From: a virus
Lineage: Duplodnaviria > Heunggongvirae > Uroviricota > Caudoviricetes
IMG/VR virus record: IMGVR_UViG_2703718828_000002
Span: 1 to 27,795 of that record
DNA: 27,795 bases
Direction: 5' to 3' (one strand)
Both the position numbers and the translations under genes were made by a program. Positions 136 through 27,795 of the stretch are shown here, in pieces. The notes beneath the pieces are model-generated. The model did no database searches and was not told where the DNA came from. It was given only the letters and a program-made list of their open reading frames with translations. The first letter of the stretch is position 1; each line of letters starts with the position of its first letter.

Positions 136-161
136 ATGGCGTGCAATTGCACGCCATTTTT
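136..161 (+). terminator. Rho-independent terminator between convergent genes
   Basis: Perfect 22-nt palindrome ATGGCGTGCAATTGCACGCCAT (136-157) followed by T-run 157-161; lies between the stop of the partial ORF (120) and the stop of the minus-strand MTase (160-162). Confidence 0.5.
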
Positions 162-1191
162 AATTTGAAAGGTGCTTGAGAATACTTTGCCCAATGATCT
201 CGCCTAACCTTACCGGCACTGCATTTCCTATCATTCTTGCTGTTGATGCAATGTCCAAACTAGATTCTTTATCGAAAAATAAATAATCTTTCGGAAAACT
301 TTGCAGTATCGCAGCTTCTCTTAAGGAGATTGCCCTGTTTTGTTCTGGATGACCAAAGCGTCCATTACCAAAACCATAGCATTGTGTGGTTATTGTTGGA
401 CTTGGTTCATTCCATGACATCCTGCCATAAACACTTTTATAAAATTTTCCAGACTCTTTTAAGTGACAAGGTGCTCTCAAGTGTATCGGCCAATCATGCC
501 AATCGCCTCCGGGCTTTGAAGCTTTAATACGCTCCATGTTCAAAGGGCTAAGAGTAGAACATTTATGAAGTGGATCGCGCTTGTCACATTCTCCAGCATT
601 TAATGATGGAAGGCCAAATATTGCATCCTTAACAGTTACGTAATTTTTTTTGTTATGAGTCGGATCAATTATAGAGATAGGACCTAATTTGGATGCTAAT
701 AATACTAAACGTTTACGAGTTTGCGGCATTCCATAATCTGGGCAAAAAACGATCTTATAATAAACATTATATCCATGGCCTTCAAGGTTGTTTATGAAAT
801 CTTTAAATATGTCTTGTGTCATCAAGCCTGGTACATTCTCCATCGTGACGATAGAGGGTTGCGTTTCATCAATTAACCGCGAAAAAGAATATAATAATGC
901 CCATTTGTCATCTTTTTTCTTGTTTTTAGTTCTTCCATATGTTGAAAACGGCTGACAAGGAGCGCATCCAGCTAAAATCGTTACATCTGAATCTTTAAAA
1001 TGACTGAGGATCTGTTCACCCTTCAAAACGGTTATGTCTTGATTGATAAAAACTGCATTATTATTAAATTCAAACGCAAAACGGCAGGTTTCTTCAATAT
1101 CATAACCTGCTACAACATCAATGCCTGATTGCTTTAACCCATGGGTTAGCCCCCCGGCTCCGCAAAATAAATCTACTGCTTTGATTTTCAA
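160..1191 (-). CDS. DNA cytosine-5 methyltransferase (Dcm-like m5C MTase), copy 1
   Basis: 343-aa translation carries m5C-MTase motifs: DLFCGAGG (motif I), GCAPCQPFS (catalytic PCQ, motif IV), ENV (motif VI), QTRKR (motif VIII), GNAVPV (motif X). Start codon is TTG (rc of 1189-1191). AT-rich relative to the integrase next to it. Confidence 0.9.
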   Translation of the reverse strand: MKIKAVDLFCGAGGLTHGLKQSGIDVVAGYDIEETCRFAFEFNNNAVFINQDITVLKGEQILSHFKDSDVTILAGCAPCQPFSTYGRTKNKKKDDKWALLYSFSRLIDETQPSIVTMENVPGLMTQDIFKDFINNLEGHGYNVYYKIVFCPDYGMPQTRKRLVLLASKLGPISIIDPTHNKKNYVTVKDAIFGLPSLNAGECDKRDPLHKCSTLSPLNMERIKASKPGGDWHDWPIHLRAPCHLKESGKFYKSVYGRMSWNEPSPTITTQCYGFGNGRFGHPEQNRAISLREAAILQSFPKDYLFFDKESSLDIASTARMIGNAVPVRLGEIIGQSILKHLSN

Positions 1192-1223
1192 AATAATTCT
1201 CTATCTATTTTCAATTTATGCCT

Positions 1224-1260
1224 ATTATAACAGCTTTCATAAGCAACATCGATGATTAGT
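1224..1260 (-). promoter_or_regulatory. Candidate extended -10 promoter for MTase copy 1
   Basis: Minus strand reads TGtTATAAT (rc of 1224-1232), a perfect -10 hexamer with TG extension; the -35 region is poor. Sits in the 72-nt gap between the integrase stop and the MTase start. Confidence 0.3.
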
Positions 1261-1263
1261 TAT

Positions 1264-2457
1264 TCACATCATTTCTTTGACTTTGCTTCCCCACCATTTC
1301 ATAACTACAGCACGTTGTTCAAGGTATGTGCTACGGTTGTAGGCTCTACGTACCTCATTTTTGTCTGAATGAGCTAAGCAAGCCTCAATAACATCTGCGT
1401 TAAAGCAAGCTTCATTCATCGCGGTACTTGCTATAGAACGTAAACCATGCGCAACGAGCTTTCCATTATACCCAATACGTTTCAGTGCAGCATTCGCCGT
1501 TTGGCTATTCATCGGTTGCTTAGGATCATTCCTACTAGGGAATACGTGTACACGATGGGCACTGATAGGTTTCATTACTTCAAGTACCTCAAGTGCTTGA
1601 GGTGACAAAGGAACAATGTGCTCGCGTTTTGCCTTCATCCGCTCTGCTGGAATTGTCCATAGCTTAGCCTCAAAATCTATCTCTGACCATTGAGTACCGG
1701 AAGCTTCTGAGGGCCGTACGATAGTCAGTAGTTGCCATTCAATCAGGCAGCGAGTCGGGACTGATAGGTTTGACATAACCAATGATCGCATTAACTTTGG
1801 CAGTTCTTCTGGCCGCAATGTCGGCATGTTTTGCTTTTTAGGTTTCTCAAATGCCATACCAACACCTGATGCTGGGTTGCCATCAATCAAGCCGGTGTTA
1901 ACCGCATAAATCATTATCTCGTTGATGCGCTGCACCAGTCGACGTACAGTCTCAAGCGCCCCACGAGCTTTGATTGGCTCAAGAGCTTCAACCAGTGTAC
2001 GGGCTTTGATTTGCTGAACGGGGATCTCACCGATGGCAGGGAATACATCTTTCTCCAGTGAGCGCCAAATGTCTTTTGCGTAATCAGGAGTAACGCTTTT
2101 GCTTTTGAGCTGGAACCAGTTAGCGGCTACTGTTGAAAAAATACTGTCCAGTGCGATTTGCTGCTGTTCCTCTGCAACTTCAGCTTGAATTTGTGGGTCG
2201 ATTCCGTTGGCTAATAAAGCAAGGTAATTCGCTCTTAACCCTCGGGCATCAGCAAGCGAAAGGGCGGGGAAAGCACCTAGCCCCATCATTGTCCGTTGTT
2301 TTGTCGCCGGACGTTGATAACGAAAGCGCCAGAGCTTTTTTCCACTGGTTTTCACTATCAGGAAAAGGCCATTGCCATCATGCAGCGTTAGATCCTTCTC
2401 TAACGCTTTAGCGCGAAGAACTTCGGTATTGGTCAGGGGGCGTGTTGTCCGTGCCAC
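1264..2457 (-). CDS. int: P4/CP4-57-type tyrosine integrase (ssrA-targeting IntA-like)
   Basis: 397-aa translation beginning MARTTRPLTNTEVLRAK...LWRFRYQRP resembles P4-family integrases as recalled; GTG start (rc of 2455-2457) preceded by AAGGAG 8 nt upstream; the ssrA 3-prime core lies about 185 nt upstream on the same strand. Confidence 0.85.
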   Translation of the reverse strand: MARTTRPLTNTEVLRAKALEKDLTLHDGNGLFLIVKTSGKKLWRFRYQRPATKQRTMMGLGAFPALSLADARGLRANYLALLANGIDPQIQAEVAEEQQQIALDSIFSTVAANWFQLKSKSVTPDYAKDIWRSLEKDVFPAIGEIPVQQIKARTLVEALEPIKARGALETVRRLVQRINEIMIYAVNTGLIDGNPASGVGMAFEKPKKQNMPTLRPEELPKLMRSLVMSNLSVPTRCLIEWQLLTIVRPSEASGTQWSEIDFEAKLWTIPAERMKAKREHIVPLSPQALEVLEVMKPISAHRVHVFPSRNDPKQPMNSQTANAALKRIGYNGKLVAHGLRSIASTAMNEACFNADVIEACLAHSDKNEVRRAYNRSTYLEQRAVVMKWWGSKVKEMM

Positions 2458-2818: not shown

Positions 2819-4339
2819 TTATTCAGGCTTTAATTTATTGATAATAGAATCTACCATTTTAATGCCTGCCTCATTGACTATGACTGAATTGACTACTCTA
2901 TCAAAATAGTCTTCTATATGGTGGGAAAATAGGAAAGCAGCACTTGATGGTTTTTTGTTCTTTTCAACTGCAGATTGCAAGACTTCATGAGGCGGAATTT
3001 TAAACCTTTTGCATGATGCAATGAGATATTCAAACTCTTCAAATGATAGACAAAAAATATTCTCTGTAGGGATATGATAGTTATGTTTAAACTTGTCATA
3101 TATCTTATTCATCTCATCTTTAGCATAAGTATTAGCTAGGATACTACCATTGCCTAAGAAAAGGTTTTTATATGTAATGCAAATGATATATGAGTTAGCC
3201 CTGAATGGAGCTATTATTCGCTCATTAGAGTATATTTCTCGATTAACTTCGTGAGATTGTTCGATTGCTTTTAATACCGATTTCTTTATTTTTCCTGCAA
3301 TATCCTCAGGGCGTAATGTTACCATGCCTTTTTGGTGTATCTCAACGCCTTTAGCATCAATGAAAATATTTGCCTCAGTATGTGGAATGAAATAATCAAC
3401 TACTTTATTATCTTTAGGTAGTCGTTCTTTAAGGTATTTTTCGTTATGAAAATCAATTTCGCTTTCTTTTAGTATTAATTCCAGTGCATTTTCAAATACA
3501 TTTCCAAAGCTATCCATGAACTTCTCGGCATCAGTTCTTCTTAAAAGATCATATATGAACGTCTGTATGCTTGTTGAAGTCAGTTGTGTGTGTATCTGAA
3601 AATACTCTGAACCTTTTTTTATTAATGGTTTTTCAAGGAAAGGTGATGATGAGTAGTATTCAAGCAAAGGTTTATCATAGGTTTTTGATTTGCAAAATGT
3701 AGATAGTTCATTGTAATTTATTGATATTGCATCAAGAAATTTCTCAATGGTATTTCTAGGAATGATGTCAAATAATATAGTAAATGTATCTACATTCATT
3801 TTTCTCACGGGATGCTCTTCTGTTATGTGAGTTATTAATATGTAAGATAGCTTAAGAAAGTCTTCTATAGATACATTCGTGATAGTAAAAAAACTTGTCT
3901 TTATTTTATGGTTTTTTTCAAGTTCTGAAAATAGAAAGACTTGTCTGCTAATTGTGTTTAGAGCGTCAATTTTCTGGTAGATTCCTTGTTGGTATAGATT
4001 ATTTCTAATGAAGAAATGCATGCCATTCTTCCTCTCAAGACCGATAGGAATAATGTTCAAGGTTTCATAAGTTTTTTGGAAGAGTTTTATTGCTTGATTT
4101 TTATCGAGGATTTTGAATTTTTTATTCTTGCCAGTTACTGACGCAGACCACTTTAGACATAAATTAACAATCCAAGGCATGTGTCGTAACATGTGGATAT
4201 TATCTTCAAATTTTTGTAAGTTATATTGCATACAGAATTCGATAAATAAATCAGGGGAATAACCTTGGATTTCTGAACGAATAGCATCCATTCTTAACTT
4301 TGCAACCGCATCAGATTGAATATCTAATTTTTGAATCAC
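2819..4339 (-). CDS. Hypothetical 506-aa protein; AT-rich cargo gene between the att core and the prophage integrase
   Basis: Long uninterrupted ORF with markedly lower GC than int; GTG start (rc of 4337-4339) with GGAG 9 nt upstream overlapping the int stop; no family recognised by eye. A weak D...DxK pattern (VVDYFIPHTEANIFIDAKG) is the only motif-like element noted. Confidence 0.65.
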   Translation of the reverse strand: MIQKLDIQSDAVAKLRMDAIRSEIQGYSPDLFIEFCMQYNLQKFEDNIHMLRHMPWIVNLCLKWSASVTGKNKKFKILDKNQAIKLFQKTYETLNIIPIGLERKNGMHFFIRNNLYQQGIYQKIDALNTISRQVFLFSELEKNHKIKTSFFTITNVSIEDFLKLSYILITHITEEHPVRKMNVDTFTILFDIIPRNTIEKFLDAISINYNELSTFCKSKTYDKPLLEYYSSSPFLEKPLIKKGSEYFQIHTQLTSTSIQTFIYDLLRRTDAEKFMDSFGNVFENALELILKESEIDFHNEKYLKERLPKDNKVVDYFIPHTEANIFIDAKGVEIHQKGMVTLRPEDIAGKIKKSVLKAIEQSHEVNREIYSNERIIAPFRANSYIICITYKNLFLGNGSILANTYAKDEMNKIYDKFKHNYHIPTENIFCLSFEEFEYLIASCKRFKIPPHEVLQSAVEKNKKPSSAAFLFSHHIEDYFDRVVNSVIVNEAGIKMVDSIINKLKPE

Positions 4340-4351
4340 AATAGGTCTCCA

Positions 4352-5365
4352 CTACAAATTATAAAGAGGATTTTTAGTCACCGCGTCTTCAAGGTGATCG
4401 GGCGAAAAGTGGGCGTAAATCATGGTCATTTTTATATCGGCATGACCCAAAATATCACGCAGTACCAGTATGTTTCCGCCGTTCATCATAAAGTGACTGG
4501 CGAATGTATGGCGAAGCACGTGGGTGCATTGGCCCTCCGGTAGGTCAATACCGGCCCGCTTTACTGCCCGCTCAAAGGCTTTTCTGCATGGCGTGAATAA
4601 CTTTCCTCTGTTTTTGGGGAGTTCATCATACAGATCCTGAGATATCGGCACAGTACGGTTTTTCTTGCCTTTTGTTTTTGTATAAGTAATTCGGTATTTC
4701 GATATTTGATGGCCCTGCAGATTTTCGGCTTCACTCCACCGTGCGCCAGTAGCCAGGCATATTTTTGCAATCATTAGTAAGCTAGGGCTTTGAGATTCAG
4801 CACATGCCGCCAACAGGCGCTTGATTTCGTCCGTGGAAAGAAAAGCCAGCTCACCTTCGGCAATTTTGAAGGTCGGAAGTCCTGCCAGCGGGTTTGGTGC
4901 TGACCAGTGTCCTAGTTTTTTTAATGTACCGAACACAGATGATAGATTGCGCTGTTCAAGGTTTACCGTGCGGGGCTTAACGGGCGACATCAGCGTGCCA
5001 TCTTCATTTCGCACTTCACCTTTTAGCCGTGCTTCGCGGTATTTCGTAAAGTCACCGGCAGTCAGCTCTGAAGCGATGGGATCGCCCAGACCATTACAGA
5101 TAATTCCAAGTTTCGCCATGAGTCGCTTGGGGTCTGCGAGTGTTTGACCATACAGGGAATACCACAGCTCAATTAATTCTGATAGGTGTCGCCGATCTTC
5201 CTTTTCTCCCAGCCAAGGTTTCTTGTTTACCTCGTCCATGGTGAAATTCTCAAACGCAATGGCTTCGCCTTTCGTCGCAAATTGTTTGCGTACGCGTTTG
5301 CCATCTCGCCCGTTTGGGTAGCATTCACATAACCACTTTCCGTTCGGCTGTTTTCTGATGGTCAT
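4352..5365 (-). CDS. int: P2/186-family tyrosine integrase
   Basis: 337-aa translation with C-terminal tyrosine-recombinase signature region (...HVLRHTFASHFMMNGGNILVLRDILGHADIKMTMIYAHF) consistent with R..HxxR..Y catalytic residues; ATG at rc 5363-5365 one nt after the repressor stop. Confidence 0.9.
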   Translation of the reverse strand: MTIRKQPNGKWLCECYPNGRDGKRVRKQFATKGEAIAFENFTMDEVNKKPWLGEKEDRRHLSELIELWYSLYGQTLADPKRLMAKLGIICNGLGDPIASELTAGDFTKYREARLKGEVRNEDGTLMSPVKPRTVNLEQRNLSSVFGTLKKLGHWSAPNPLAGLPTFKIAEGELAFLSTDEIKRLLAACAESQSPSLLMIAKICLATGARWSEAENLQGHQISKYRITYTKTKGKKNRTVPISQDLYDELPKNRGKLFTPCRKAFERAVKRAGIDLPEGQCTHVLRHTFASHFMMNGGNILVLRDILGHADIKMTMIYAHFSPDHLEDAVTKNPLYNL

Positions 5366-5366
5366 A

Positions 5367-5999
5367 TCAAAGGCTCTTAATGATTTTCAGTGCGCGGCCT
5401 ATTACCTCAATGTCATCCAGTTCGCACTCAAACGATGAATCATCCTGATGCACTACTAATCTGTTTCCCGGGAGTCGTGTCAATTTTACAATGCTTTTTA
5501 TCCCGTCGATGTCCACTAACCACGTACCATTTACTGGTGGTGTTTGGTTGCGATCTATTAAATAAGAATCACCAGAAGTAGTCACCAGCAGCAGGTTGCT
5601 TGAGTCTGAGGGGAGTATGCTGCTATCAATGATTGCTTTTCCAGCATCGATCAGCAAACCTCCGTTGAGAGTTGCCTTGTCAATTTCAGGAGATACAAGC
5701 TCCGAAAGAGGTTTAACTTTGCTAGAGTTCACGGAATTGATATTTTTTTTAGGGTCAATGTTTGAACCTGGATCGCCCTGTCCGGTAGTTAGCCACAGTA
5801 AAGAAACTCCTGTTTCCAAAGCGCACTGAATCACCCATTCTGCAGGAAAACTATCTCTTAAGTATCTGTTTGCCATAGTGCTTTTTGATGCGCCCAAGTG
5901 ATCGCAAAGTTGCTGTCTGGACTTGAAATCATAGGCTGCCATTAGCCTATGGATAGCCTCTCTTCCCCCTGTATTCTCGCCAGCTTTTACTTGTATCAT
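5367..5999 (-). CDS. cI: CI-type immunity repressor (phage 186 CI-like)
   Basis: 210-aa protein on the int strand, divergent from the apl/cII operon; motifs CALETG..LLWL.TGQG and LWLVDIDG...LTRLPG...FECELDDI match the 186 CI layout as recalled. Confidence 0.75.
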   Translation of the reverse strand: MIQVKAGENTGGREAIHRLMAAYDFKSRQQLCDHLGASKSTMANRYLRDSFPAEWVIQCALETGVSLLWLTTGQGDPGSNIDPKKNINSVNSSKVKPLSELVSPEIDKATLNGGLLIDAGKAIIDSSILPSDSSNLLLVTTSGDSYLIDRNQTPPVNGTWLVDIDGIKSIVKLTRLPGNRLVVHQDDSSFECELDDIEVIGRALKIIKSL

Positions 6000-7489: not shown

Positions 7490-7723
7490 ATGCGTAATAT
7501 TGAAACCCTCACGACTAAAACCGGACCGGATGATGCAGGGCTTAATATTTTACTGACAGAGGCTCGTCTGGAAGAACGCCGGGCAAGGGCTGAAGCAATG
7601 GCAGCTCGCCTTGATAGCCTGGCGTGTCATATCACATCCCGCCAGCTAAACCACGTCGAAGCAGCAGAACTACTGCGTGTAACTGCTGAAGCAATCCAGA
7701 ACGAAGCGCAGGAGATCCACTAA
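7490..7723 (+). CDS. Hypothetical early protein
   Basis: ATG at 7490 with AGGAG 8 nt upstream; the track start at 7484 is TTG; its stop overlaps the next start (TAATG). Confidence 0.5.
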   Translation: MRNIETLTTKTGPDDAGLNILLTEARLEERRARAEAMAARLDSLACHITSRQLNHVEAAELLRVTAEAIQNEAQEIH

Positions 7724-7950
7724 TGGCTGATGCAATGGATCTTGTACAGCAGCGCGTTGAAGAAGAACGCCAGCGCCATATCCGTGCTGCCCGTGCCAAA
7801 ACGCCGGGCGTGTCCCGCGTGCTTTGCATTGAGTGTGAAGCGCCAATTCCGCCAGCACGCCGCCGCGCCATTCCAGGTGTGCAGCTTTGCATTACCTGTC
7901 AGGAAATCGCAGAACTGAAAGGCAAACATTACAACGGAGGTGCTGTATGA
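7723..7950 (+). CDS. DksA/TraR-type C4 zinc-finger protein
   Basis: 75 aa with CIECE...17 residues...CITCQ (Cys-x2-Cys...Cys-x2-Cys) at the C-terminus. Confidence 0.7.
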   Translation: MADAMDLVQQRVEEERQRHIRAARAKTPGVSRVLCIECEAPIPPARRRAIPGVQLCITCQEIAELKGKHYNGGAV

Positions 7951-8804
7951 GCACCATCCTGAAATGGGCGGGAAATAAAACCGCCATTATGTCCGAACTG
8001 AAAAAACACCTTCCTGCTGGCCCGCGACTGGTTGAACCTTTCGCGGGTTCCTGTGCTGTGATGATGGAGACGGATTACCCCAGCTATCTGGTTGCGGATA
8101 TTAATCCTGATTTAATCAACCTCTATAAAAAGGTTGCCGCTGATTGTGAATCGTTTATATCTCGCGCCAGAGTTTTATTTGAGATCGCAAACAGGGAGGT
8201 GGCTTATTACAACATAAGGCAGGAGTTTAATTACTCCACTGAAATTACTGATTTCATGAAAGCGGTATATTTCCTGTATCTCAATCGTCACGGTTACCGT
8301 GGTTTATGTCGCTATAACAAGAGCGGGCATTTCAACATTCCCTACGGTAATTATAAAAATCCGTATTTCCCTGAAAAAGAAATTCGCGCATTTGCAGAAA
8401 AAGCCCAGCGGGCAACGTTTATCTGCGCCAGCTTTGATGAAACGCTGGCGATGTTGAAGGCGGGGGATGTGGTGTATTGCGATCCGCCGTATGACGGCAC
8501 GTTTTCCGGTTATCACACTGACGGCTTCACTGAAGATGACCAGTATCACCTGGCATCCGTTCTTGAACATCGGTCATCAGAAGGACATCCGGTCATTGTT
8601 TCTAACAGTGACACATCCCTGATCCGTTCGCTGTATCGCAATTTTACTCACCACTACATCAAGGCAAAACGCAACATCGGTGTGGCAGCTGGCGAGGGTA
8701 AATCAGCAACAGAAATCATTGCTGTTTCCGGGCCGCGCTGCTGGGTGGGATTTGATTATTCGCGTGGCATGGACAGTTCTGCCGTGTACGGAGTACGTGC
8801 ATGA
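7947..8804 (+). CDS. dam: DNA adenine methyltransferase (Dam-like, N6-adenine)
   Basis: N-terminal LKWAGNK AdoMet-binding motif and catalytic DPPY (VYCDPPYDG). ATG 7947 with GGAGG 6 nt upstream, overlapping the previous stop (ATGA); the track start at 7887 has no RBS. Confidence 0.9.
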
Positions 8805-11215
8805 GTCATGCCGATATGAACAACTGCTGCGGCTTTAACGAGGCTACCGCAGCATTCTCATGGAACAGCCCGAAAAAGGCCATTAACCCTTATCTGGACC
8901 CGGCGGAAGTTGCGCCGGTTTCTGCGCTTTCAAACCTGATCACTCTGTACGCTGCCGATAACGAGCAGGAACAACTGCGCCGTGAGGCACTGAGTGATCA
9001 GGTCTGGGAGCGTTATTTCTTTAATGAATCCCGTGATCCTGTCCAGCGCGAAATGGAGCAGGATAAGCTAATTAGCCGGGCAAAGCTGGCGCATGAGCAG
9101 CAGCGTTTTAATCCAGACATGGTCATTCTGGCGGATGTCAACGCCCAGCCTTCCCATATCAGCAAGCCGCTGATGCAACGTATTAAATACTTCAGCAACC
9201 TGGGCAGGCCAAAGGCTTATTCCCGCTATTTGCGTGAGACGATTAAGCCATGCTTGGAACGACTGGAGCATGTACGCGACAGCCAGCTATCTGCATCTTT
9301 TCGTTTTATGGCAAGCCATGAAGGGCTGGACGGTCTGCTGATCCTGCCTGAAATGAGTCAGGATCAGGTGAAACGCCTGTCCACCCTTGTCGCTGCGCAT
9401 ATGAGCATGTGTCTTGATGCCGCTTGTGGTGATTTGTACGCCTCCGATGATGTTAAGCCGGAAGAAATCCGCAAGACATGGGAAAAGGTGGCAGCAGAAA
9501 CCCTGCGACTGGATGTCATACCGCCTGCGTTTGAGCAACTCCGCCGGAAAAGAAACCGCCGCAAACCTGTGCCCTATGAACTCATTCCGGGTTCGCTGGC
9601 GCGTATGCTGTGCGCCGACTGGTGGTATCGGAAATTATGGAAGATGCGTTGCGAATGGCGGGAAGAGCAGTTGCGTGCTGTCTGTCTGGTCAGCAAAAAA
9701 GCATCTCCCTATGTCAGCTATGAAGCCGTGATGCATAAACGTGAGCAGCGCCGTAAGTCGCTGGAGTTTTTCCGTTCTCATGAACTGGTGAACGAAGACG
9801 GCGACACGCTGGACATGGAGGATGTGGTAAACGCCAGCAGCAGCAACCCTGCGCATCGCCGCAATGAGATGATGGCCTGTGTTAAAGGCCTGGAGCTTAT
9901 CGCGGAAATGCGCGGTGACTGCGCCGTTTTCTACACCATCACCTGTCCGTCACGTTTCCATTCCACGCTAAATAACGGCAGGCCCAACCCGACCTGGACA
10001 AATGCGACGGTAAGACAAAGCAGTGATTATCTGGTTGGCATGTTTGCTGCATTTCGTAAGGCGATGCACAAAGCCGGATTGCGCTGGTATGGCGTGCGGG
10101 TGGCTGAGCCGCATCATGACGGTACAGTTCACTGGCACCTGTTGTGTTTTATGCGCAAAAAAGATCGCCGCGCCATTACTGCTTTGTTGCGTAAGTTTGC
10201 CATTCGTGAAGACCGCGAGGAGCTGGGGAATAACACGGGACCACGCTTTAAGTCTGAGTTGATTAACCCGCGCAAAGGAACGCCGACAAGCTACATCGCG
10301 AAATATATCAGTAAGAACATTGACGGGCGTGGTCTGGCTGGCGAGATCAGCAAGGAAACGGGTAAATCCCTGCGTGATAACGCTGAATACGTGAATGCCT
10401 GGGCGTCTCTGCATCGTGTTCAGCAATTCCGCTTCTTTGGCATTCCGGGGCGTCAGGCTTACCGTGAACTGCGATTGCTGGCTGGTCAGGCGGCAAGGCA
10501 ACAGGGTGACAAAAAAGCAGGTGCGCCGGTACTGGATAACCCGCGCCTTGATGCCATCCTGGCTGCTGCTGATGCTGGTTGTTTTGCCACCTACATCATG
10601 AAGCAGGGCGGCGTACTGGTTCCCCGCAAATATCACCTCATCAGAACCGCTTATGAAATCAACGAAGAGCCAACCGCCTATGGCGATCACGGTATTCGTA
10701 TTTATGGCATCTGGTCACCCATTGCAGAGGGCAAGATCTGCACTCATGCAGTGAAGTGGAAAATGGTTCGTAAGGCCGTTGACGTTCAGGAGGCGGCAGC
10801 CGACCAGGGCGCTTGCGCCCCTTGGACTCGTGGCAATAACTGTCCCCTTGCTGAAAATTTGTACCAACAAGGGAAAGACAAATCAGCTGATGGGGATACC
10901 AGAACGGATATTACCCGTATGGATGACAAGGAGTTGCACGATTACCTGCACAGTATGAACAAAAAAGAACGCCGGGAACTGGCTGCAAGATTACGCCTGG
11001 TGAAACCGAAACGGCGTAGAGACTACAAACAGCGAATTACAGACCATCAACGACAGCAGCTCGTCTATGAACTGAAGTCCAGAGGATTTGATGGCAGCGA
11101 GAAAGAGGTCGATTTACTCCTTCGCGGCGGCAGCATTCCGTCAGGAGCAGGCCTGCGTGTCTTCTATCGGAACCAGCGTTTGCAGGAAGATGATAAGTGG
11201 CGGAACCTGTATTAA
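8801..11215 (+). CDS. A: Replication initiation protein A (rolling-circle nickase, P2 gpA family)
   Basis: 804 aa with HUH-type motif [10 protein letters not shown] and paired tyrosines YIAKYISK; ATGA overlap with the dam stop; size and position match P2/186 gene A. Confidence 0.9.
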
Positions 11216-12034: not shown

Positions 12035-13075
12035 TTGATTAAAGTTGTTGATCTTTTTTGCGGAGCAGGTGGCTTAACTCATGGTTTGCAACGAGCAGGG
12101 TTGAATGTGGTTGCAGGCTATGATATTGATGCTACATGTCGGTATGCTTATGAAAAAAATAACAATGCTTTATTTGTGCAAAAAAGCGTCACTGAACTTG
12201 ATGAAGGGGAAATAAGTAAGCATTTTAAGGATGCATCAATTAAAGTTTTAGCTGGATGCGCTCCATGCCAGCCATTTTCTAGTTATACAAATACTGATAA
12301 ATCAGTAAAAAAAATAAAAGACCATCGATGGTCTTTATTGTATAGCTTTGCTAAGCAAATTCAATTATGTGCTCCAGATATAGTCACAATGGAGAATGTT
12401 CCAAGAGTTATTAACCACAAAGTTTTTAAAGATTTTGTGAAGACTTTAAAGTCTGAAGGGTATTTCGTTTGGTATGATACTGTATTTTGTCCTGATTATG
12501 GAATGGCCCAAAGCCGATCTAGATTAGTGTTATTAGCGTCCAAGTTTGGCGAGATAAAACTAATCCCGCCAACACATGATAAAAATAACTATAACACTGT
12601 ACGTAGCGTTATTGGTGGATTGCCTCCTATTGATGCTGGATCGAGTGATGAGAAAGACAGACTTCATTATGCTGCATCTTTATCACCATTAAATATGGAG
12701 CGAATAAAACATTCTAAGCCAGGTGGAACATGGAAAGATTGGCCTGAGTACTTACGGGCGTCATGCCACACCAAAGAATCAGGATCTTCTTACACTGCAG
12801 TTTATGGAAGAATGAGCTGGGATAAACTTGGCTCTACAATTACAACACAATGTATAGGTTTTGGTAATGGTCGATTTGGTCATCCAGAACAAAATAGAGC
12901 TATTAGCCTAAGAGAGGCAGCTTTGCTTCAATCTTTTCCTCTAACTTATGAATTTTGGCCAGCTGAAGTAAAAGTTGAACTCAGGAATGTTGCACGACTG
13001 ATTGGTAATGCTGTGCCGGTGAGGCTCGGTGAAGTTGTTGGGCAAAGTATTATTGAACACCTTAAAAGAAAATAA
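12035..13075 (+). CDS. DNA cytosine-5 methyltransferase (Dcm-like m5C MTase), copy 2, paralogous to copy 1
   Basis: 346 aa with DLFCGAGG, GCAPCQPFS, ENV, QSRSR and GNAVPV motifs; collinear by eye with the 160..1191 protein along its whole length; TTG start with strong SD; AT-rich. Confidence 0.9.
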   Translation: MIKVVDLFCGAGGLTHGLQRAGLNVVAGYDIDATCRYAYEKNNNALFVQKSVTELDEGEISKHFKDASIKVLAGCAPCQPFSSYTNTDKSVKKIKDHRWSLLYSFAKQIQLCAPDIVTMENVPRVINHKVFKDFVKTLKSEGYFVWYDTVFCPDYGMAQSRSRLVLLASKFGEIKLIPPTHDKNNYNTVRSVIGGLPPIDAGSSDEKDRLHYAASLSPLNMERIKHSKPGGTWKDWPEYLRASCHTKESGSSYTAVYGRMSWDKLGSTITTQCIGFGNGRFGHPEQNRAISLREAALLQSFPLTYEFWPAEVKVELRNVARLIGNAVPVRLGEVVGQSIIEHLKRK

Positions 13076-13099
13076 AAAGGGCGAATCGCCCTTTTTTTT
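13074..13099. terminator. Bidirectional terminator shared by the convergent MTase and GHKL genes
   Basis: A-run, GGGCG-AAT-CGCCC hairpin, T8 run; overlaps both stop codons (13073-13075 and 13098-13100). Confidence 0.5.
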
Positions 13100-15056
13100 A
13101 GATACCATCAACAATTTTCATTATTCGTGCAGCATCATCTTTTTTGCTCTGATACTCAGAGTATGCTTGTTTGGATTGTATTATAAGATCGCTATATGTT
13201 AATACCTTTGCATTTATAGATTGTAGCTGTGAGCGAATATAATTATCTCCACTTCCGTCATAACCTTTGCCGACAAGAAAAACTACATCTATCGGTGGTA
13301 TTTTTCCGGCAGGGCAACTATTTGGGTTGTTTCTAAACCACTGCTCTGTGGCAACAACATATTTCCTTCCTTGACCTACTAATGCCAAAATATCAGGATA
13401 TACATTTGGTCTTTTCATTTCAATGATGACGTGTTTACCTGAAACGGTTTTGAAGGCTATATCAATTCTTGCACCACTTTCAGCGTCAGGGTTAACCTCT
13501 TTCAATTCCTTAGTCAGGGTTTGTTCCATAACTGTAGAACCAGTAACCCTCTCCCATGATGGGTCTAACAGCCATAAGTGGTCATAAAGATATTTTTGTA
13601 CAGCCTTCTCTAACTCATTGTCATCGGTGATTTTTTGAAATTTCTCAATAACTTTCAATCGCTGTGATGTAATCTCATAAAAAAGGCTTGCCTCAATATC
13701 ATTTACAGAAGCAAAAACCTCCCTAAAATGTTCTGAGTTTAAATCGCTAATTTTATCTAAAGCCTCAAGGTTATCTTTTATTCTTAATCTTTCAAAAGCA
13801 AGAACTGTATTTTTTAATACGGTTTTTTTTGCAATTTTCTGGTTTTCTTCATCTCCAGAAAATCTAAATGTGTTAATTTTGCCTAGTAATTTTTCGGCGC
13901 TGTTTCTTTCATGTTTTGACATGGAATCAAGCCAATCACTTACAGCAGGTGAAGTTTTTTTAACCTCGCTAAGACCTTTTGCTCTTCGCCATTCATCCCA
14001 TTCTTTATCTATTTTTTGTAATGTCCGTTCTAAGAAACCCTTAATCACAGGATAGCGTGGATCATTCTGCTGTAATTTCTGTCGGGATGAGGTTGCCATG
14101 TCAGGTTTTTCATTTTCATCTAAAAAATCTGCGACAAGTTCCCCTACTAAATAATTTGTAAAAACCTTTGCGCTTCCGAATTCAAGCAATATATCTTCTT
14201 CAAATACCCGCCCATTTGATATTACGGTTATCGTGTTGTTAGATATTTCAGGGTCTTTTTTAAGTTGAGATGGTTTCTCAACACTTCCTACATAACCAGT
14301 AATGAAATAATCTACGCCTTCAAAAGATAATTTGTTATCTAGAAGGCTTTTTTTAGAAAGATTTTTGCAAGATTTTACTCTTGCGGGATCTGAACTACCA
14401 AACTCCCATAAAAATTCAAGATCTGAAAGGAAGTCTCTATCTTCAGTAGTTATCTCAGTGTCATTGATTTTAACTATAAAATCATGACCAGGACCAATTA
14501 TGCTAAACCGTCTGGCAAGTCTTTTTCTTAGATAGGTCTGAGTTCTATCAATGGATTTTTTTAAATCCATAAGAACTATTGTCGTCCCTATACTAAAGTC
14601 TTTCGGAACATTAATAATATTTGCAACATATTGTTTACTGCTTTTTATACAGCGTTGCAATTCATCAACGTCAACTTCAAATCCCTGAGGCGTTTGGCCA
14701 ATTTTGTGAGAAAATACTTGGATTTTGTTAGCTAATGAAAACATTGCTAATTTACCAATGCCTTTTCTACCCATGACTTGTCGTTGTAATCCATCACTTT
14801 TATACCTTCCACTTTCTCTTCTGGCATATCCAACTTTTAGGAATTTATTAATGATGTCATCTTTTGACATTCCATGTCCATCATCTTTAATTATTACCTT
14901 TTCATTTTCAACATCTAGAGTGATGTCTACATTTTTAGCATCCGCATCCCAAGCATTTGAGATTATTTCAGTTAGAACAGCTGGTGTGTTAGAGTAAAGA
15001 CTCATACCTAAATGATTCAATACATTCAGGTCTATTTTAATTTCGAAATCGGACAT
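13098..15056 (-). CDS. GHKL-superfamily ATPase (MORC/MutL/Hsp90-like Bergerat fold) with C-terminal PD-(D/E)xK-like motif; candidate effector partner of MTase copy 2
   Basis: 652 aa. N-terminus carries N-box EIISNAWDADA, G1 box DDGHGM and G2 box GRKGIGKLAMFS; C-terminus carries RIDIAF...12 residues...IIEMKRP (D...ExK). ATG at rc 15054-15056 with AAGGA RBS; AT-rich. Confidence 0.8.
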   Translation of the reverse strand: MSDFEIKIDLNVLNHLGMSLYSNTPAVLTEIISNAWDADAKNVDITLDVENEKVIIKDDGHGMSKDDIINKFLKVGYARRESGRYKSDGLQRQVMGRKGIGKLAMFSLANKIQVFSHKIGQTPQGFEVDVDELQRCIKSSKQYVANIINVPKDFSIGTTIVLMDLKKSIDRTQTYLRKRLARRFSIIGPGHDFIVKINDTEITTEDRDFLSDLEFLWEFGSSDPARVKSCKNLSKKSLLDNKLSFEGVDYFITGYVGSVEKPSQLKKDPEISNNTITVISNGRVFEEDILLEFGSAKVFTNYLVGELVADFLDENEKPDMATSSRQKLQQNDPRYPVIKGFLERTLQKIDKEWDEWRRAKGLSEVKKTSPAVSDWLDSMSKHERNSAEKLLGKINTFRFSGDEENQKIAKKTVLKNTVLAFERLRIKDNLEALDKISDLNSEHFREVFASVNDIEASLFYEITSQRLKVIEKFQKITDDNELEKAVQKYLYDHLWLLDPSWERVTGSTVMEQTLTKELKEVNPDAESGARIDIAFKTVSGKHVIIEMKRPNVYPDILALVGQGRKYVVATEQWFRNNPNSCPAGKIPPIDVVFLVGKGYDGSGDNYIRSQLQSINAKVLTYSDLIIQSKQAYSEYQSKKDDAARIMKIVDGI

Positions 15057-16526: not shown

Positions 16527-18289
16527 AAAATCTCCACAATATTGCTGGTATTGGCGGATTCGCCCTGCAGCGGTTCGTTAAACAGTGCGTGCATCGTTGC
16601 CCAGGCCAGATCCGCATGGCTGGCTTCTTCGCTGCGGCTGGCTTCATAGGTCGGGCGGTTGCCACTGGCGGTGGTGGAGCGACGGATTGCCATAAAGGAC
16701 TGCGCTATGTCGGTGTGTCCGGCGTCAAACTCCAGACGGCGGTGGCTGATAATGTCGTAGGCCTTGAGTACCAGGGCGTTTTTAACGTTGGGGTTGTAGA
16801 CAAACTCCCGGACGGCAGGAAAGAATGCTTTCACGTTCTCGTAAACCCCGTGGCCGACGCCAGTTGAGTCGATGCCGATGTATGTCACGTTGTACTGTTC
16901 GGTCAGTTTTTTGATGGCGTCAGCCTGGGCGCGGAAGTCCATCCCGCGCCACTGGTGACGCTCAAGAATGCGAAACTTACCGCCTGGCACGGCTGGCGGT
17001 GCCACCACCACGCATCCGGCGCTGTCGCCGTTCTGCGTACCTTTTGCCGGGTCATAACCGATCCACACTTCGCGCCAGCCAAACGGGCGCAGGGCCAGTG
17101 CATGAAAGTCGGTCCAGACTTCCCAGCTGTCCACCATGCACGCCTGCAATTCGCTGAGCGGGAACACAGATGCGAGATCGTCAACGAACTCGCACATCAG
17201 CAGGTTCTGGTATTCGTCCGGGCTGTACTCCATGCGCAACTGGTCGAGGTCGAACAGGTTACAGCCGCCGCGTACCGCATCTTCCACGGTGACTATCTGG
17301 CGGTATTGCCCGTCTGCGCACAGCAGGCCGGGGGCCAGATTGCTGTGGGACAGGTCGATGTCCACCTTATCGGCTTTGTTGCGCCCACGGTTGAACAGCG
17401 CACCGGACCAGAACGGATAAGCACTGTGTGTCAGGCTGGATGGCGTGGAAAAATAGGTCTGTCGCCATTTCTTGTGAATAGCCATACCGGAAGCCACTTT
17501 GCGCAGCTCCTGGAATTTCGGTATCCAGAAATATTCATCCAGATACAGGTTGCCGTGGTAACTCTGGGCCGTGCGGGCATTGGTGCCGAGGAAATACAGT
17601 GTGGCCCCGTTGGGAAGCACCATCGGATCGCCTTTCAGCTCCACCTCCACTTCTTTGGCGAAGTCGATGATGTACTGCTTAAAGACGTGGGCCTGTGCTT
17701 TACTGGCGGAAAGGAAAATCTGGTTACGTCCGGTAAGCAGGGCGTCAATCAGGGCTTCACGGGCAAAGTAAAAGGTCGCGCCGATCTGGCGTGACTTCAG
17801 CAGGTTACGGATGCGATTGGTTTTTCCGGCTTCCCACCAGTGGCGCTGGTAGTTGAACATGGAGGAATGGAAGATTTCTTCCAGCTTCTCAATCTGTTCA
17901 TCGGTGAAGACATTCTTTTCCGGCTGACGGCGCGGGCCTTTGTTGCGGTTGGCGACGTTAGGGTTTAAGTCGGCTTCGTTGCCGCCATTGTTAAACTTGC
18001 CGATCCGCGCGTGGCGCTCAGACTGGCGCGCCAGCAGGTCAATCTCTTTGAAATCTTTCCCTTCTTTGTGCTCCTTCATGATGAGCTGGCAGTAGCGTGC
18101 GGCGGTGGTGAGCTGCATCTGATCCAGCGGCCCATAGTCACCCCACTTGTCGCGTTTTTTCCAGCTGTGAACGGTTGCAACTTTCTCGCCCAGCATTTCA
18201 GCAATGCGGGCTACGCGGTATCCCTGAAAGTACAGCAGCATGGCCTGCCGACGGGGATCGAGATCTGCGGGTGTCAGTGTGGTGTTCAT
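16523..18289 (-). CDS. P: Terminase large (ATPase) subunit (P2 gpP)
   Basis: 588 aa; N-terminus ...RRQAMLLYFQGYRVARIAEMLG... and C-terminus ...YEASRSEEASHADLAWATMHAL... match P2 P as recalled. Confidence 0.9.
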   Translation of the reverse strand: MNTTLTPADLDPRRQAMLLYFQGYRVARIAEMLGEKVATVHSWKKRDKWGDYGPLDQMQLTTAARYCQLIMKEHKEGKDFKEIDLLARQSERHARIGKFNNGGNEADLNPNVANRNKGPRRQPEKNVFTDEQIEKLEEIFHSSMFNYQRHWWEAGKTNRIRNLLKSRQIGATFYFAREALIDALLTGRNQIFLSASKAQAHVFKQYIIDFAKEVEVELKGDPMVLPNGATLYFLGTNARTAQSYHGNLYLDEYFWIPKFQELRKVASGMAIHKKWRQTYFSTPSSLTHSAYPFWSGALFNRGRNKADKVDIDLSHSNLAPGLLCADGQYRQIVTVEDAVRGGCNLFDLDQLRMEYSPDEYQNLLMCEFVDDLASVFPLSELQACMVDSWEVWTDFHALALRPFGWREVWIGYDPAKGTQNGDSAGCVVVAPPAVPGGKFRILERHQWRGMDFRAQADAIKKLTEQYNVTYIGIDSTGVGHGVYENVKAFFPAVREFVYNPNVKNALVLKAYDIISHRRLEFDAGHTDIAQSFMAIRRSTTASGNRPTYEASRSEEASHADLAWATMHALFNEPLQGESANTSNIVEIF

Positions 18290-18335
18290 GGCACAAACCT
18301 ACAGCCTTGAATGAAGGCTTTCCCCGCCTGCGGTT

Positions 18336-18353
18336 TGTGTGGTTGTCGGTACA
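18336..18353 (+). promoter_or_regulatory. Candidate late-promoter activator site (TGT-N12-ACA) for the O operon
   Basis: TGTGTGGTTGTCGGTACA in the P-O divergent intergenic region, about 80 nt upstream of the O start; P2-type late promoters carry a TGT-N12-ACA element near -55. Confidence 0.4.
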
Positions 18354-18431
18354 AATACCGCGCATTGTTTCACTGCCCCCATCACCGCAACCATAAGGCT
18401 CCAGTAAGTTTTTTCTAACGGAGCACGGCTC

Positions 18432-23403: not shown

Positions 23404-23800
23404 TAAAGCAGTGCCTTATGTCCGTAATAACCCGGACAAACTGCATCTGTTTGTGGATAACGGTTCGCTGGTTGCCACGGGGGCCAGCTCCATGTCATGG
23501 GAGTACCGCTACACCCTGAACGTGGTGATTGAGGATTTCAGCGGCGACCAGAATCTGCTGATGGCCCCGGTTTTGCTGTGGCTTCGGGATAACCAGCCCG
23601 ATGCCATCAATAACCCGGCGTTACGGGAAAAGCTATTCACCTTTGAGGTGGATATTTTGCGCAACGATGTCTGTGATATCAGCCTTAACCTGCAACTGAC
23701 GGAACGTGTGCTGGTCAGTACTGACGGCAGTGTGTCGAGCGTTGAAGCTGTAGCAGAACCCGATGAACCTGAAGAAATGTGGACGGTGAAACGTGGCTGA
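23348..23800 (+). CDS. R: Tail completion protein (P2 gpR)
   Basis: ...LHLFVDNGSLVATGAS.S.EYRYTLNVVIEDFSGD..LLMAPVLLWLRDNQPD... collinear with P2 R; true start may be the GTG at 23369. Confidence 0.8.
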   Translation: MRVRSETVNKPQSLRHALNKAVPYVRNNPDKLHLFVDNGSLVATGASSMSWEYRYTLNVVIEDFSGDQNLLMAPVLLWLRDNQPDAINNPALREKLFTFEVDILRNDVCDISLNLQLTERVLVSTDGSVSSVEAVAEPDEPEEMWTVKRG

Positions 23801-24239
23801 ACTGCAGAAGGTGGACGACTGGCTGAGTGCCTTGCTGGCGAATCTGGAACCAGCCACGAGAAGCCGCATGATGCGCCAGCTGGCGCAGGAACTGCGCCGG
23901 ACACAGCAGCAGAATATCAGGATGCAGCGCAATCCAGATGGCAGCAGTTATGAACCGCGCAGGGTAACAGCACGCAGCAAGAAGGGGCGCATCAAACGTC
24001 AGATGTTTGCAAAGCTGCGCACCACAAAATACCTGAAAACTGCCGCCAGCGCCGACTCTGCCAGCGTACAGTTTGAAGGCAAGGTGCAGCGCATTGCCCG
24101 CGTTCACCATTACGGCCTGCGTGATCGCGTCAGTCGCAAAGGACCTGAGGTCCGTTACGCAGAGCGTCGCCTTCTGGGTGTAAATGATGATGTTGAGGCA
24201 ATGACCCGCGACATGATTCTGCAATGGCTGGCGGGGTGA
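23793..24239 (+). CDS. S: Tail completion protein (P2 gpS)
   Basis: ...RQLAQELRRTQQQNIRMQRNPDGSSYEPR...GRIKRQMFAKLRTTKYLK...IARVHHYGLRDRVSRKGPEVRYAERRLLG... matches P2 S. Confidence 0.85.
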   Translation: MAELQKVDDWLSALLANLEPATRSRMMRQLAQELRRTQQQNIRMQRNPDGSSYEPRRVTARSKKGRIKRQMFAKLRTTKYLKTAASADSASVQFEGKVQRIARVHHYGLRDRVSRKGPEVRYAERRLLGVNDDVEAMTRDMILQWLAG

Positions 24240-24243
24240 TTTT

Positions 24244-24261
24244 TGTATCAGCACTGATACA
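24244..24261 (+). promoter_or_regulatory. Candidate late-promoter activator site (TGT-N12-ACA) for the V operon
   Basis: TGTATCAGCACTGATACA is a perfect 8-8 inverted repeat in TGT-N12-ACA format, 47 nt upstream of the V start. Confidence 0.5.
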
Positions 24262-24307
24262 AGTTGCAGCACTGCCGCCTTTCTTCCTCTGATGGCAACC
24301 TTTCCCT

Positions 24308-24886
24308 ATGAACGCACAATTAACCGAAATCATGCGCCTTATCACCAACCTGATCCGCACTGGTGTAGTCACCGAAGTGGACAGGACAAACTGGCTGTGT
24401 CGGGTGAAAACGGGCGACCTTGAAACTAACTGGATTAACTGGCTGACGCTGCGCGCGGGTAATGCCCGCACATGGTGGAAACCATCAGAAGGTGAGCAGG
24501 TGGTGCTGCTGAGTCTGGGCGGCAATCTGGAGACTGCCTTTGCGCTGCCCGCTGTCTATTCGAATCAGTTCGCACCACCGTCGACGTCGGCGGACGCCTG
24601 CGTGACAGAACATCCTGACGGTGGCTGGTTTGAATACGAACCCGCCACCGGGCGCTGGTATGTCAGGGGCATCAAATCAATGGTCATTGAGGCCGCTGAC
24701 AACATCACCATGAAAACCAGTGAGTTTGTACTGGAGGCTGACCGCACGCGCATTAACAGCGAAGTGGTGATCAATGGTGGCGTTACCCAGGGCGGCGGAG
24801 CGATGAGTTCTAACGGGATCGTGGTTGATGCGCATCAGCATACTGGCGTCCTGAAAGGCGGCGATACAACCGGAGGCCCGGTATGA
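24308..24886 (+). CDS. V: Baseplate spike protein (P2 gpV)
   Basis: 192 aa; ...LIRTGVVTEVD...WLTLRAGNARTWWKPSEGEQVVLL..GG.LETAF.LP..YS... collinear with P2 V. Confidence 0.9.
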   Translation: MNAQLTEIMRLITNLIRTGVVTEVDRTNWLCRVKTGDLETNWINWLTLRAGNARTWWKPSEGEQVVLLSLGGNLETAFALPAVYSNQFAPPSTSADACVTEHPDGGWFEYEPATGRWYVRGIKSMVIEAADNITMKTSEFVLEADRTRINSEVVINGGVTQGGGAMSSNGIVVDAHQHTGVLKGGDTTGGPV

Positions 24887-26735: not shown

Positions 26736-27795
26736 GCACAAAATTTTATACCCTGCTGACGGATATTGGCGCGGCGAAACTTGCCAGCGCCGCCGCGCTC
26801 GGTGTGCCGCTAAAAATTACCCATATGGCGGTGGGCGATGGCGGTGGAGTATTGCCAACGCCGGACGCAAAGCAGACGGCACTGGTAAATGAGAAACGCC
26901 GGGCTGCGCTGAATATGCTTTATATCGACCCGCAGAACAGCAGCCAGATTATTGCCGAACAGGTGATCCCTGAAAACGAGGGCGGTTGGTGGATACGTGA
27001 AGTGGGCCTGTTTGATGAGTCCGGGGCATTGATTGCCGTGGGCAACTGCCCGGAAAGCTATAAGCCGCAACTGGCTGAAGGTAGCGGGCGCACTCAGACC
27101 GTGCGCATGGTGCTGATTACCAGCAGTACGGACAATATCACCCTGAAAATCGACCCTGCTGTAGTGCTGGCAACCCGCAAGTATGTGGATGACAAGGCAC
27201 TGGAGCTGAAGGTGTACGCGGATGATCAGATGGCAAAACATCTTGCCGCACCGGACCCGCATTCACAGTACGCGCCAAAAGCCAACCCGACATTTACCGG
27301 AACCCCCAAAGCGCCAACGCCAGCGGCGGGGAATAATACCACGCAGGTTGCGACCACTGCGTTTGTACAGGCGGCACTGACGGCCCTTATTAATGGTGCG
27401 CCAGCCACGCTGGACACGCTGAAAGAAATAGCCGCAGCCATTAACAATGATCCGAATTTCAGTACCACCATTAACAATGCGCTGGCACTGAAAGCGCCGT
27501 TGTCGAGTCCGGCACTCACCGGAACGCCAACAGCACCTACTGCGGCACAGTCGGTCAACAATACACAGATTGCCACTACAGCTTTTGTGAAATCAGCGAT
27601 TGCGGCAATGGTGGGTTCTGCACCTGCTGCACTGGATACACTGAACGAACTGGCGGCGGCGCTGGGGAATGACCCGAACTTTGCCACGACAATGTTGAAT
27701 GCGCTGTCAGGCAAACAACCGCTGGACAATACGCTGACTAATTTGAGTGGAAAGGATGTTGCTGGTCTTCTCGCATACCTTGGTTTGGGAGAAGC
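26732..27795 (+). CDS. H: Tail fibre protein (P2 gpH), N-terminal part only; continues past the window end
   Basis: ATG 26732 in ATGA overlap with the I stop; reading frame open to the window edge; the conserved N-terminal domain (MS.KF.T..T..GAAKLA.A.A.G....I..MAVGDGGG.LP.PDA.QT.L..E..R.ALN...) matches P2 H. Confidence 0.9.
   Translation, partial: MSTKFYTLLTDIGAAKLASAAALGVPLKITHMAVGDGGGVLPTPDAKQTALVNEKRRAALNMLYIDPQNSSQIIAEQVIPENEGGWWIREVGLFDESGALIAVGNCPESYKPQLAEGSGRTQTVRMVLITSSTDNITLKIDPAVVLATRKYVDDKALELKVYADDQMAKHLAAPDPHSQYAPKANPTFTGTPKAPTPAAGNNTTQVATTAFVQAALTALINGAPATLDTLKEIAAAINNDPNFSTTINNALALKAPLSSPALTGTPTAPTAAQSVNNTQIATTAFVKSAIAAMVGSAPAALDTLNELAAALGNDPNFATTMLNALSGKQPLDNTLTNLSGKDVAGLLAYLGLGE
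27330..27740 (+). repeat. Tandem duplicated ~60-codon module inside the tail fibre gene
   Basis: Protein repeats NTTQVATTAFV...LDTLKEIAAAINNDPNFSTTINNAL and NNTQIATTAFV...LDTLNELAAALGNDPNFATTMLNAL; the corresponding nucleotide segments (from about 27332 and 27557) are recognisably similar. Confidence 0.5.

Follow-up and report, generated by a model that had tools for sequence, protein, structure and literature searches.

A perfect TGT-N12-ACA dyad directly upstream of gene V as the probable activator-binding site of a P2-type late promoter

What role does a perfect palindrome play in the short gap between genes S and V of a P2-like prophage? The locus lies within the window, here meaning the whole 27,795-nt stretch of DNA that was analyzed (IMG/VR record IMGVR_UViG_2703718828_000002). 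P2-type late promoters are activated by Ogr/B zinc-finger proteins, which bind a TGT-N12-ACA element near -55, and the initial annotation had proposed an element of this type for the S-V gap. In a passage of PMC3931495, the four P2 late promoters are described as carrying TGT-N12-ACA and as being Ogr-dependent, and an excerpt of PMC8628076 presents P4 delta as an ogr homolog, both proteins activating late genes and delta acting on the P2 late promoters via the same sites. The P2 late promoters are also cited, in an excerpt of PMC4633059, as among the few leaderless cases in E. coli, and a passage in PMC11434276 states that ogr mutations suppress rpoA109 L290H.

The window contains a P2/186-like (Peduoviridae) prophage with the gene order int-CI-...-A-...-Q P / O N M L X Y K lysA lysB R S / V W J I H. 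The genes int (4352-5365) and CI (5367-5999) are followed by CII, a TraR-like ORF, and A (8801-11215); Q and P are encoded on the minus strand, and only the start of H falls within the window. Prophages that match the late region at 95-98.6% identity occur in about 1000-1500 complete E. coli genomes, and many Klebsiella phages match it at this level too.

Other parts of the window are occupied by cargo or by a neighboring element. Directly downstream of the prophage integrase lies cargo of the int-att hotspot, a 506-aa ORF (2819-4339, minus strand) with a match to GapS1, an antiphage family (NCBIfam NF047931, 428 bits), and none in Pfam or PADLOC. Between the DinI/Tum-like gene and the portal gene Q, a C5 cytosine methyltransferase gene (12035-13075, plus strand) converges with the gene for a restriction enzyme of the BbrUII/HgiDII family that has a GHKL ATPase domain (13098-15056, minus strand; NF050001, 752 bits), and the pair (12035-15056) is type II restriction-modification cargo. 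To the left of the prophage (160-2457, minus strand), a P4-type integrase (1264-2457, Arm-DNA-bind_3 and Phage_int_M) and a second methyltransferase, which is Dcm-like (160-1191), suggest a neighboring island or a satellite in tandem. A P4-like remnant comprising psu, primase, and AAA+HNH genes is found at ssrA in E. coli 2824.

The palindrome and the two genes that flank it are arranged as follows.

23793..24239, plus strand: gene S, tail completion, last gene of the O operon (Pfam Phage_tail_S, 5.4e-42)
24243..24262, no strand: predicted activator-binding dyad of PV (sequence, position match to P2/186, and positional conservation)
24308..24886, plus strand: gene V, baseplate spike, first gene of the V-W-J-I-H... 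late operon (Pfam Phage_base_V, 1.2e-17, and the Apex motif; annotated relatives agree)

Read from the window sequence, positions 24244-24261 spell TGTATCAGCACTGATACA, an 18-bp element with the core TGT-N12-ACA, in which TGT and ACA stand 12 bp apart, as in the P2 family, where dyad symmetry is partial or full; here it is full. Its 8-nt arms, TGTATCAG and CTGATACA, are separated by the 2-nt spacer CA, and the perfect 8-8 inverted repeat claimed in the initial annotation is thus confirmed. The repeat finder extends it by one pair on the outside, to a perfect 9-2-9 palindrome, TTGTATCAG-CA-CTGATACAA, at 24243-24262. The full dyad begins 4 nt past the S stop (the S ORF stops at 24239) and ends 46 nt short of the V ATG (24308), with its center (24252.5) at -55.5 from the A of this ATG. 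The earlier placement of the 18-mer in the S-V gap, 47 nt upstream of V, also holds when read as a distance between bases: the A of the ATG follows its last base at a distance of 47 nt, 46 nt lying between the two.

The pattern itself is not enriched. The bare TGT-N12-ACA motif has 7 matches in the whole window against 7.33 expected, and its count in the relative L001 (E. coli SA53-3) is likewise at chance. The longer form TTGT-N12-ACAA occurs exactly twice in the window (18335 and 24243) against 0.61 expected, a count of at least two being reached in 11% of shuffles, and when one mismatch is allowed the count falls below expectation. The two copies occupy the S-V gap and the divergent P/O gap, the two spots in the window that match P2 late promoters. 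With counts at or below expectation, enrichment was dropped as an argument for the site: a pattern count by itself is weak evidence, and significance comes from position and conservation. A further TGT-N12-ACA, TGTGGTGTTCATGGCACA at 18278-18295, overlaps the P start codon and is absent from more distant relatives, which points to a probable chance match. Perfect inverted repeats with arms of at least 9 nt and spacers of at most 4 nt are found at four distinct places in the window, with a nested count of 8 against 0.67 expected. Besides the dyad, they lie at 136-160 near the left end of the window, at 12317-12336 inside the methyltransferase gene, and near 13075, the last being between convergent genes and having the look of a terminator.

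Position and conservation were assessed in two sets of relatives: 80 IMG/VR loci with 97-100% identical gpV, from a scan of viral contigs with gpV, and 80 prophages across Enterobacterales, from a scan of genome contigs with the N-terminus of H. The 153 pooled loci fall into 53 upstream classes, which differ from one another in over 20 of the 70 nt that precede V. Even the 80 loci with near-identical gpV have at least 12 unrelated versions of the DNA upstream of V, a mosaic that presumably reflects different cargo between S and V, like orf30 of P2; almost all of them keep TGT-N12-ACA at -64 ± 2. Across the 53 classes, the motif stands at exactly -64 in 20 and within -63 to -67 in 29, and TGT alone is at -64 or -65 in 38. 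At offsets outside -63 to -67, TGT-N12-ACA is never present in more than one class. Since about 53 x 4^-6 = 0.013 classes would be expected per offset, the observed agreement is more than 1000-fold above chance. Most of the approximately 24 classes (of 53) that have no perfect match near -64 belong to the P2/186-type group or have doubtful V starts. The S-V junction is also a hotspot for cargo insertion (loci L005-L084), and the insertions always spare the module that runs from TGT-N12-ACA to the ATG.

The 20 classes with the site at -64 yield the consensus T(17/20)-TGT-R-T/C-C-A ... T-G-A-C/T-ACA-A(19/20). The window site matches it perfectly, and the window palindrome is an idealized version of this -64 consensus. 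Both the site-to-ATG and the -10-to-ATG spacings are kept across relatives. Together with the site positions in P2 and 186, the constancy of the site-to-ATG spacing supports the proposal in the initial annotation that the dyad is a P2-type late-promoter activator element, and the sequence comparison makes this assignment probable.

Downstream of the dyad, the remaining promoter elements are recognizable to different degrees.

24272..24277, plus strand: putative weak -35-like hexamer CTGCCG, read from the sequence, 18 nt upstream of the -10-like hexamer
24293..24301, plus strand: extended -10-like element TGGCAACCT, with TG at -15/-14 and the hexamer CAACCT at -12 to -7 from the V ATG
24308, plus strand: predicted start point of V-operon transcription, at the A of the V ATG, by analogy with P2

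The core promoter is poor, with no consensus -35 and a recognizable -10, as is characteristic of P2-family late promoters. A (C/T)TGCCG-like motif recurs at the -35-like place in many S-adjacent relatives and is not universal among the mosaic variants. The -10-like hexamer is more constant: A-11 and T-7 occur in every one of the 20 classes whose site is at -64 (20/20), followed by C-12 (15/20), G-14 (15/20), and T-15 (13/20). A scan of 23700-24700 for consensus sigma-70 promoters found none, as expected because the promoter would be activator-dependent. The conservation of the hexamer at -12 to -7 puts the predicted start on the A of the V ATG or directly beside it, and no Shine-Dalgarno sequence is present in the ctttccctATG that leads into V. 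By analogy with P2, transcription most likely starts from this A and yields a leaderless V mRNA.

A comparable arrangement is found in the divergent gap between P and O.

18335..18354, no strand: second predicted activator site, TTGTGTGGTTGTCGGTACAA, the TTGT-N12-ACAA copy in the divergent P/O gap
18296..18301, minus strand: putative -10-like hexamer TAGGTT of PP, at -12 to -7 from the P ATG

Measured from the center of this site at 18344.5, the distance to the P start codon (18289, minus strand) is 55.5 nt and that to the O start codon (18432) is 87.5 nt; as in P2, the site is presumably common to PP and PO. Its geometry is kept in relatives, with the 55.5-nt distance to P in 13 of 22 classes. 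The PP hexamer has invariant T-12, A-11, and T-7 in 13 sequence classes, and it is positionally homologous to the TAGCCT of P2, which stands 6 nt before the mapped PP start; the gpP N-termini align. From this comparison, the P mRNA is predicted to be leaderless in the window's clade, unlike in P2 and 186, where it has a 23-nt leader. The F operon lies beyond the window, and in the relative L001 a site, TTGTGTGAATAACGACACAA, is found upstream of FI at 26748-26767. At all three late-operon sites (V, the P/O gap, and FI of L001), a CAAC... -10-like motif lies at an offset of 52 nt from the TGT. An activator-type element is therefore present before each late operon, that is, before P/O and V in the window and before F in L001.

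The window contains one candidate zinc-finger gene, and the closest relatives show where the activator gene would be expected.

7723..7950, plus strand, window: TraR/DksA-type zinc-finger ORF (Pfam zf-dskA_traR, 3.1e-11)
13,162 nt from the V start, E. coli SA53-3 (L001): ogr/Delta-like gene right after gene D (Pfam Ogr_Delta, 5e-22)
13,202 nt from the V start, Escherichia sp. MOD1-EC7003 (L085): ogr/Delta-like gene right after gene D
12,996 nt from the V start, E. coli 2824 (L165): ogr/Delta-like gene right after gene D

The claim that the window lacks an ogr/B-type gene is borne out by tblastn, which found no homolog in the window at E <= 1e-3 with three queries (the Ogr-like protein of L001, P2 Ogr, and 186 B). 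The accompanying reading of the ORF at 7723-7950 as DksA/TraR-like rather than Ogr-like also stands, as it matches zf-dskA_traR and has no Ogr_Delta match, and on these grounds the ORF was ruled out as the late activator. Every relative whose gpV is at least 84% identical and whose right flank spans the full 10 kb has an Ogr-like gene. Because this gene lies 13.0-13.2 kb downstream of the V start in L001, L085, and L165, and the window ends 3.5 kb past the V start, the ogr gene of the window's prophage is predicted by analogy to lie about 9.5-10 kb beyond the right end. Among the relatives L001-L165, Ogr-like proteins of the form AHTRSS...RY(N/C)QC accompany a perfect TGT-N12-ACA upstream of V, whereas with P2/186-like proteins of the form AHAR(T/S)SRY...RYHQC the TGT is followed by a degenerate right half (CCA, CAA, or AAA). 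This covariation of activator type and right half-site suggests distinct specificity classes.

Taken together, the dyad is best read, with a probability of about 0.9, as the upstream activator-binding site of PV, an Ogr/B/Delta-dependent late promoter of this P2/186-like prophage. After induction and replication, a Cys4 zinc-finger activator of about 72 aa from the Ogr/B/Delta group, encoded after gene D and beyond the right end of the window, would bind TGT-N12-ACA, centered about 55.5 bp upstream of the start point. Judging from what is known of P2, 186, and P4, the bound activator would recruit sigma-70 RNA polymerase via the alpha C-terminal domain to a promoter that otherwise offers only the weak -35-like CTGCCG and the extended -10-like TGGCAACCT. 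Transcription of the V-W-J-I-H baseplate and tail-fiber operon would then proceed from the A of the V ATG and give a leaderless V mRNA, as in P2. Activator binding, the alpha-subunit contact, and the start point are assigned here by analogy with those phages. A broader proposal goes further, namely that leaderless mRNAs for both V and P-Q (terminase-portal), with sites fixed at exactly 55.5 bp from the start codons, are shared clade-wide, together with two activator/half-site specificity classes; it is put forward tentatively, the sequence comparisons leaving it somewhat short of an even chance.

A perfect palindrome could also act at the RNA level, as a hairpin on read-through transcripts of the O operon, serving as an intrinsic terminator or as a stabilizing or processing stem between S and V. 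The dyad RNA alone can form a 9-bp hairpin, the minimum-free-energy fold encloses this hairpin in a GGCGGG/CUGCCGCC stem and continues into a U-rich stretch, a weak terminator-like match (24216-24237 plus GATTTTTGTA) overlaps the 3' end of S, and P2 has a putative terminator after S. Against this, no U tract follows the dyad directly, the fold has a z-score of only -1.69 (14 of 200 shuffles fold at least as well), and the consensus fold of 8 relatives has 0 pairs and an energy of 0. Among 37 distinct sites, complementarity at the inner positions is 0.14-0.49, compared with 0.24-0.45 expected from column composition, so there is no covariation; only TGT/ACA and the flanking T/A are fixed. Fixed outer TGT/ACA combined with inner pairs that do not covary indicates a protein site rather than a stem. 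An Rfam search returned no real match, only a spurious snoRNA match (E = 0.15). A Rho-independent terminator was rejected on the missing U tract, the z-score, and the lack of both consensus structure and covariation; any RNA-level role is very improbable, and the perfect palindrome appears to be a protein site of the dimer type with unusually high symmetry, rather than a stem conserved in RNA or DNA. If it is a protein site, its ligand could be another regulator, either host CRP or a phage protein (CI, Apl/Cox-like, or TraR/DksA-like). The TGT...ACA ends superficially resemble CRP half-sites, and the window encodes CI, CII, and the TraR-like zinc-finger protein. A CRP site is TGTGA-N6-TCACA, which amounts to TGT-N10-ACA, whereas the spacing is N12 in the window and fixed at N12 across lineages; a CRP-type site was rejected on this 12-bp spacing, common to the window and all related sites. 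The element stands before exactly the late operons (P/O, V, and F) and is absent from the early region, its place corresponds to the Ogr/B-binding sites annotated for P2 and 186, and its right half-site changes in step with the sequence of the Ogr-type protein, all of which leave an operator for another regulator with only a slight chance.

The site might instead be used mainly by a Delta-type activator from a neighboring P4-like satellite, a reading that overlaps the Ogr/B/Delta-dependent PV site and is compatible with it. The P4-type integrase (Arm-DNA-bind_3, 1264-2457) adjoins the left end of the prophage, the P4-like remnant of E. coli 2824 adjoins the same kind of prophage, and an excerpt of PMC8628076 describes activation of P2 late promoters by P4 delta via the same sites. 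The window, however, holds no delta, psu, or sid (Ogr/Delta homologs searched by tblastn), the relatives L001, L085, and L165 carry their own ogr, and the action of Delta would add to that of Ogr rather than replace it. Predominant use by a satellite is accordingly as unlikely as the two readings above. That the palindrome is a functionless product of chance finds some encouragement in the unremarkable motif counts (TGT-N12-ACA at expectation, and two TTGT-N12-ACAA copies in 11% of shuffles). It is the least probable reading of all, against a position-specific conservation that exceeds chance more than 1000-fold over unrelated upstream sequences.

Read as the PV activator site, the dyad is a fresh instance of a long-known element of P2-like phages, ordinary in kind, and it changes no concept. 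The prophage would keep the canonical P2-type late-gene switch, which aids annotation of its operons (predicted PP/PO at 18335-18354 and PV at 24243-24262). The comparison also provides a cleaner consensus for this activator clade: TTGTRTCA-N4-TGAYACAA, 34 nt, the -10 hexamer, 6 nt, and the ATG. The site is maintained even with unrelated cargo DNA inserted between S and V, and it could be used to mark where late operons begin in P2-like prophages, in tailocins, and in engineered P2/P4 delivery systems. If the two specificity classes are real, they could limit cross-activation between co-resident P2-like phages and satellites.

P2 offers the closest annotated comparison. Its record (NC_001895) lists activator sites at 3057-3087 (common to pO and pP), 10239-10266 (pV), and 17555-17583 (pF), and transcription starts at 3016, 3127, 10308, and 17626-17628, of which 10308 coincides with the first base of the V CDS. 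In an alignment anchored at the TGT, the offset to the V ATG is 64 in the window, 65 in P2, and 65 in 186, with unrelated sequence between TGT and ATG. The annotated P2 pV site (10239-10266) is centered on the aligned 18-mer, and the window element occupies the same operon position. The PV of P2 thus shares with the window a site at the same junction directly upstream of V, with its center at about -55.5, a -10-like hexamer (CAATCT in P2, CAACCT in the window), and a leaderless start, which is predicted in the window. It differs in the site itself, TGTCTGGTAGTTCTACAA, an imperfect palindrome with ACA at N11 and CAA at N12. In P2, orf30 and a terminator are inserted between S and V, whereas S of the window ends 4 nt before the site; moreover, gpV is only about 41% identical, and the sequence from the site to the -10 is unrelated. 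At the P/O gap, the shared P2 site lies 55.5 nt from both mapped starts (3016 and 3127), compared with 55.5 nt to the P ATG and 87.5 nt to the O ATG in the window.

Phage 186 resembles the window in its early region, the window's being 186-like (CI with Phage_CI_repr/CI_C domains, CII, Fil, and a DinI/Tum-like gene), and in its short gap between S(O) and V(orf32), with TGT at -65 and GGCATTCT at the -10 position. Its record (NC_001317) annotates B-protein sites at 3798-3817 and 14091-14110, and none before orf32. Its right half-sites are CCA or CGG instead of ACA, and its B protein shares only about 50% identity with the Ogr-like proteins encoded by the closest relatives of the window. A perfect TGT-N12-ACA is absent at the PV of P2 and of 186 themselves, which makes the textbook consensus a loose one.

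P4 promoters contain an additional promoter-proximal activator site, and no second conserved promoter-proximal site of this kind was seen at the window PV. The proteins P4 delta, PSP3 Pag, and phiR73 delta belong to the same Ogr_Delta zinc-finger family and, according to passages of PMC3931495 and PMC8628076, share the same 18-bp consensus and cross-activate P2-type late promoters. Unlike the activator predicted for the window's prophage, they are satellite-encoded or other-phage proteins.
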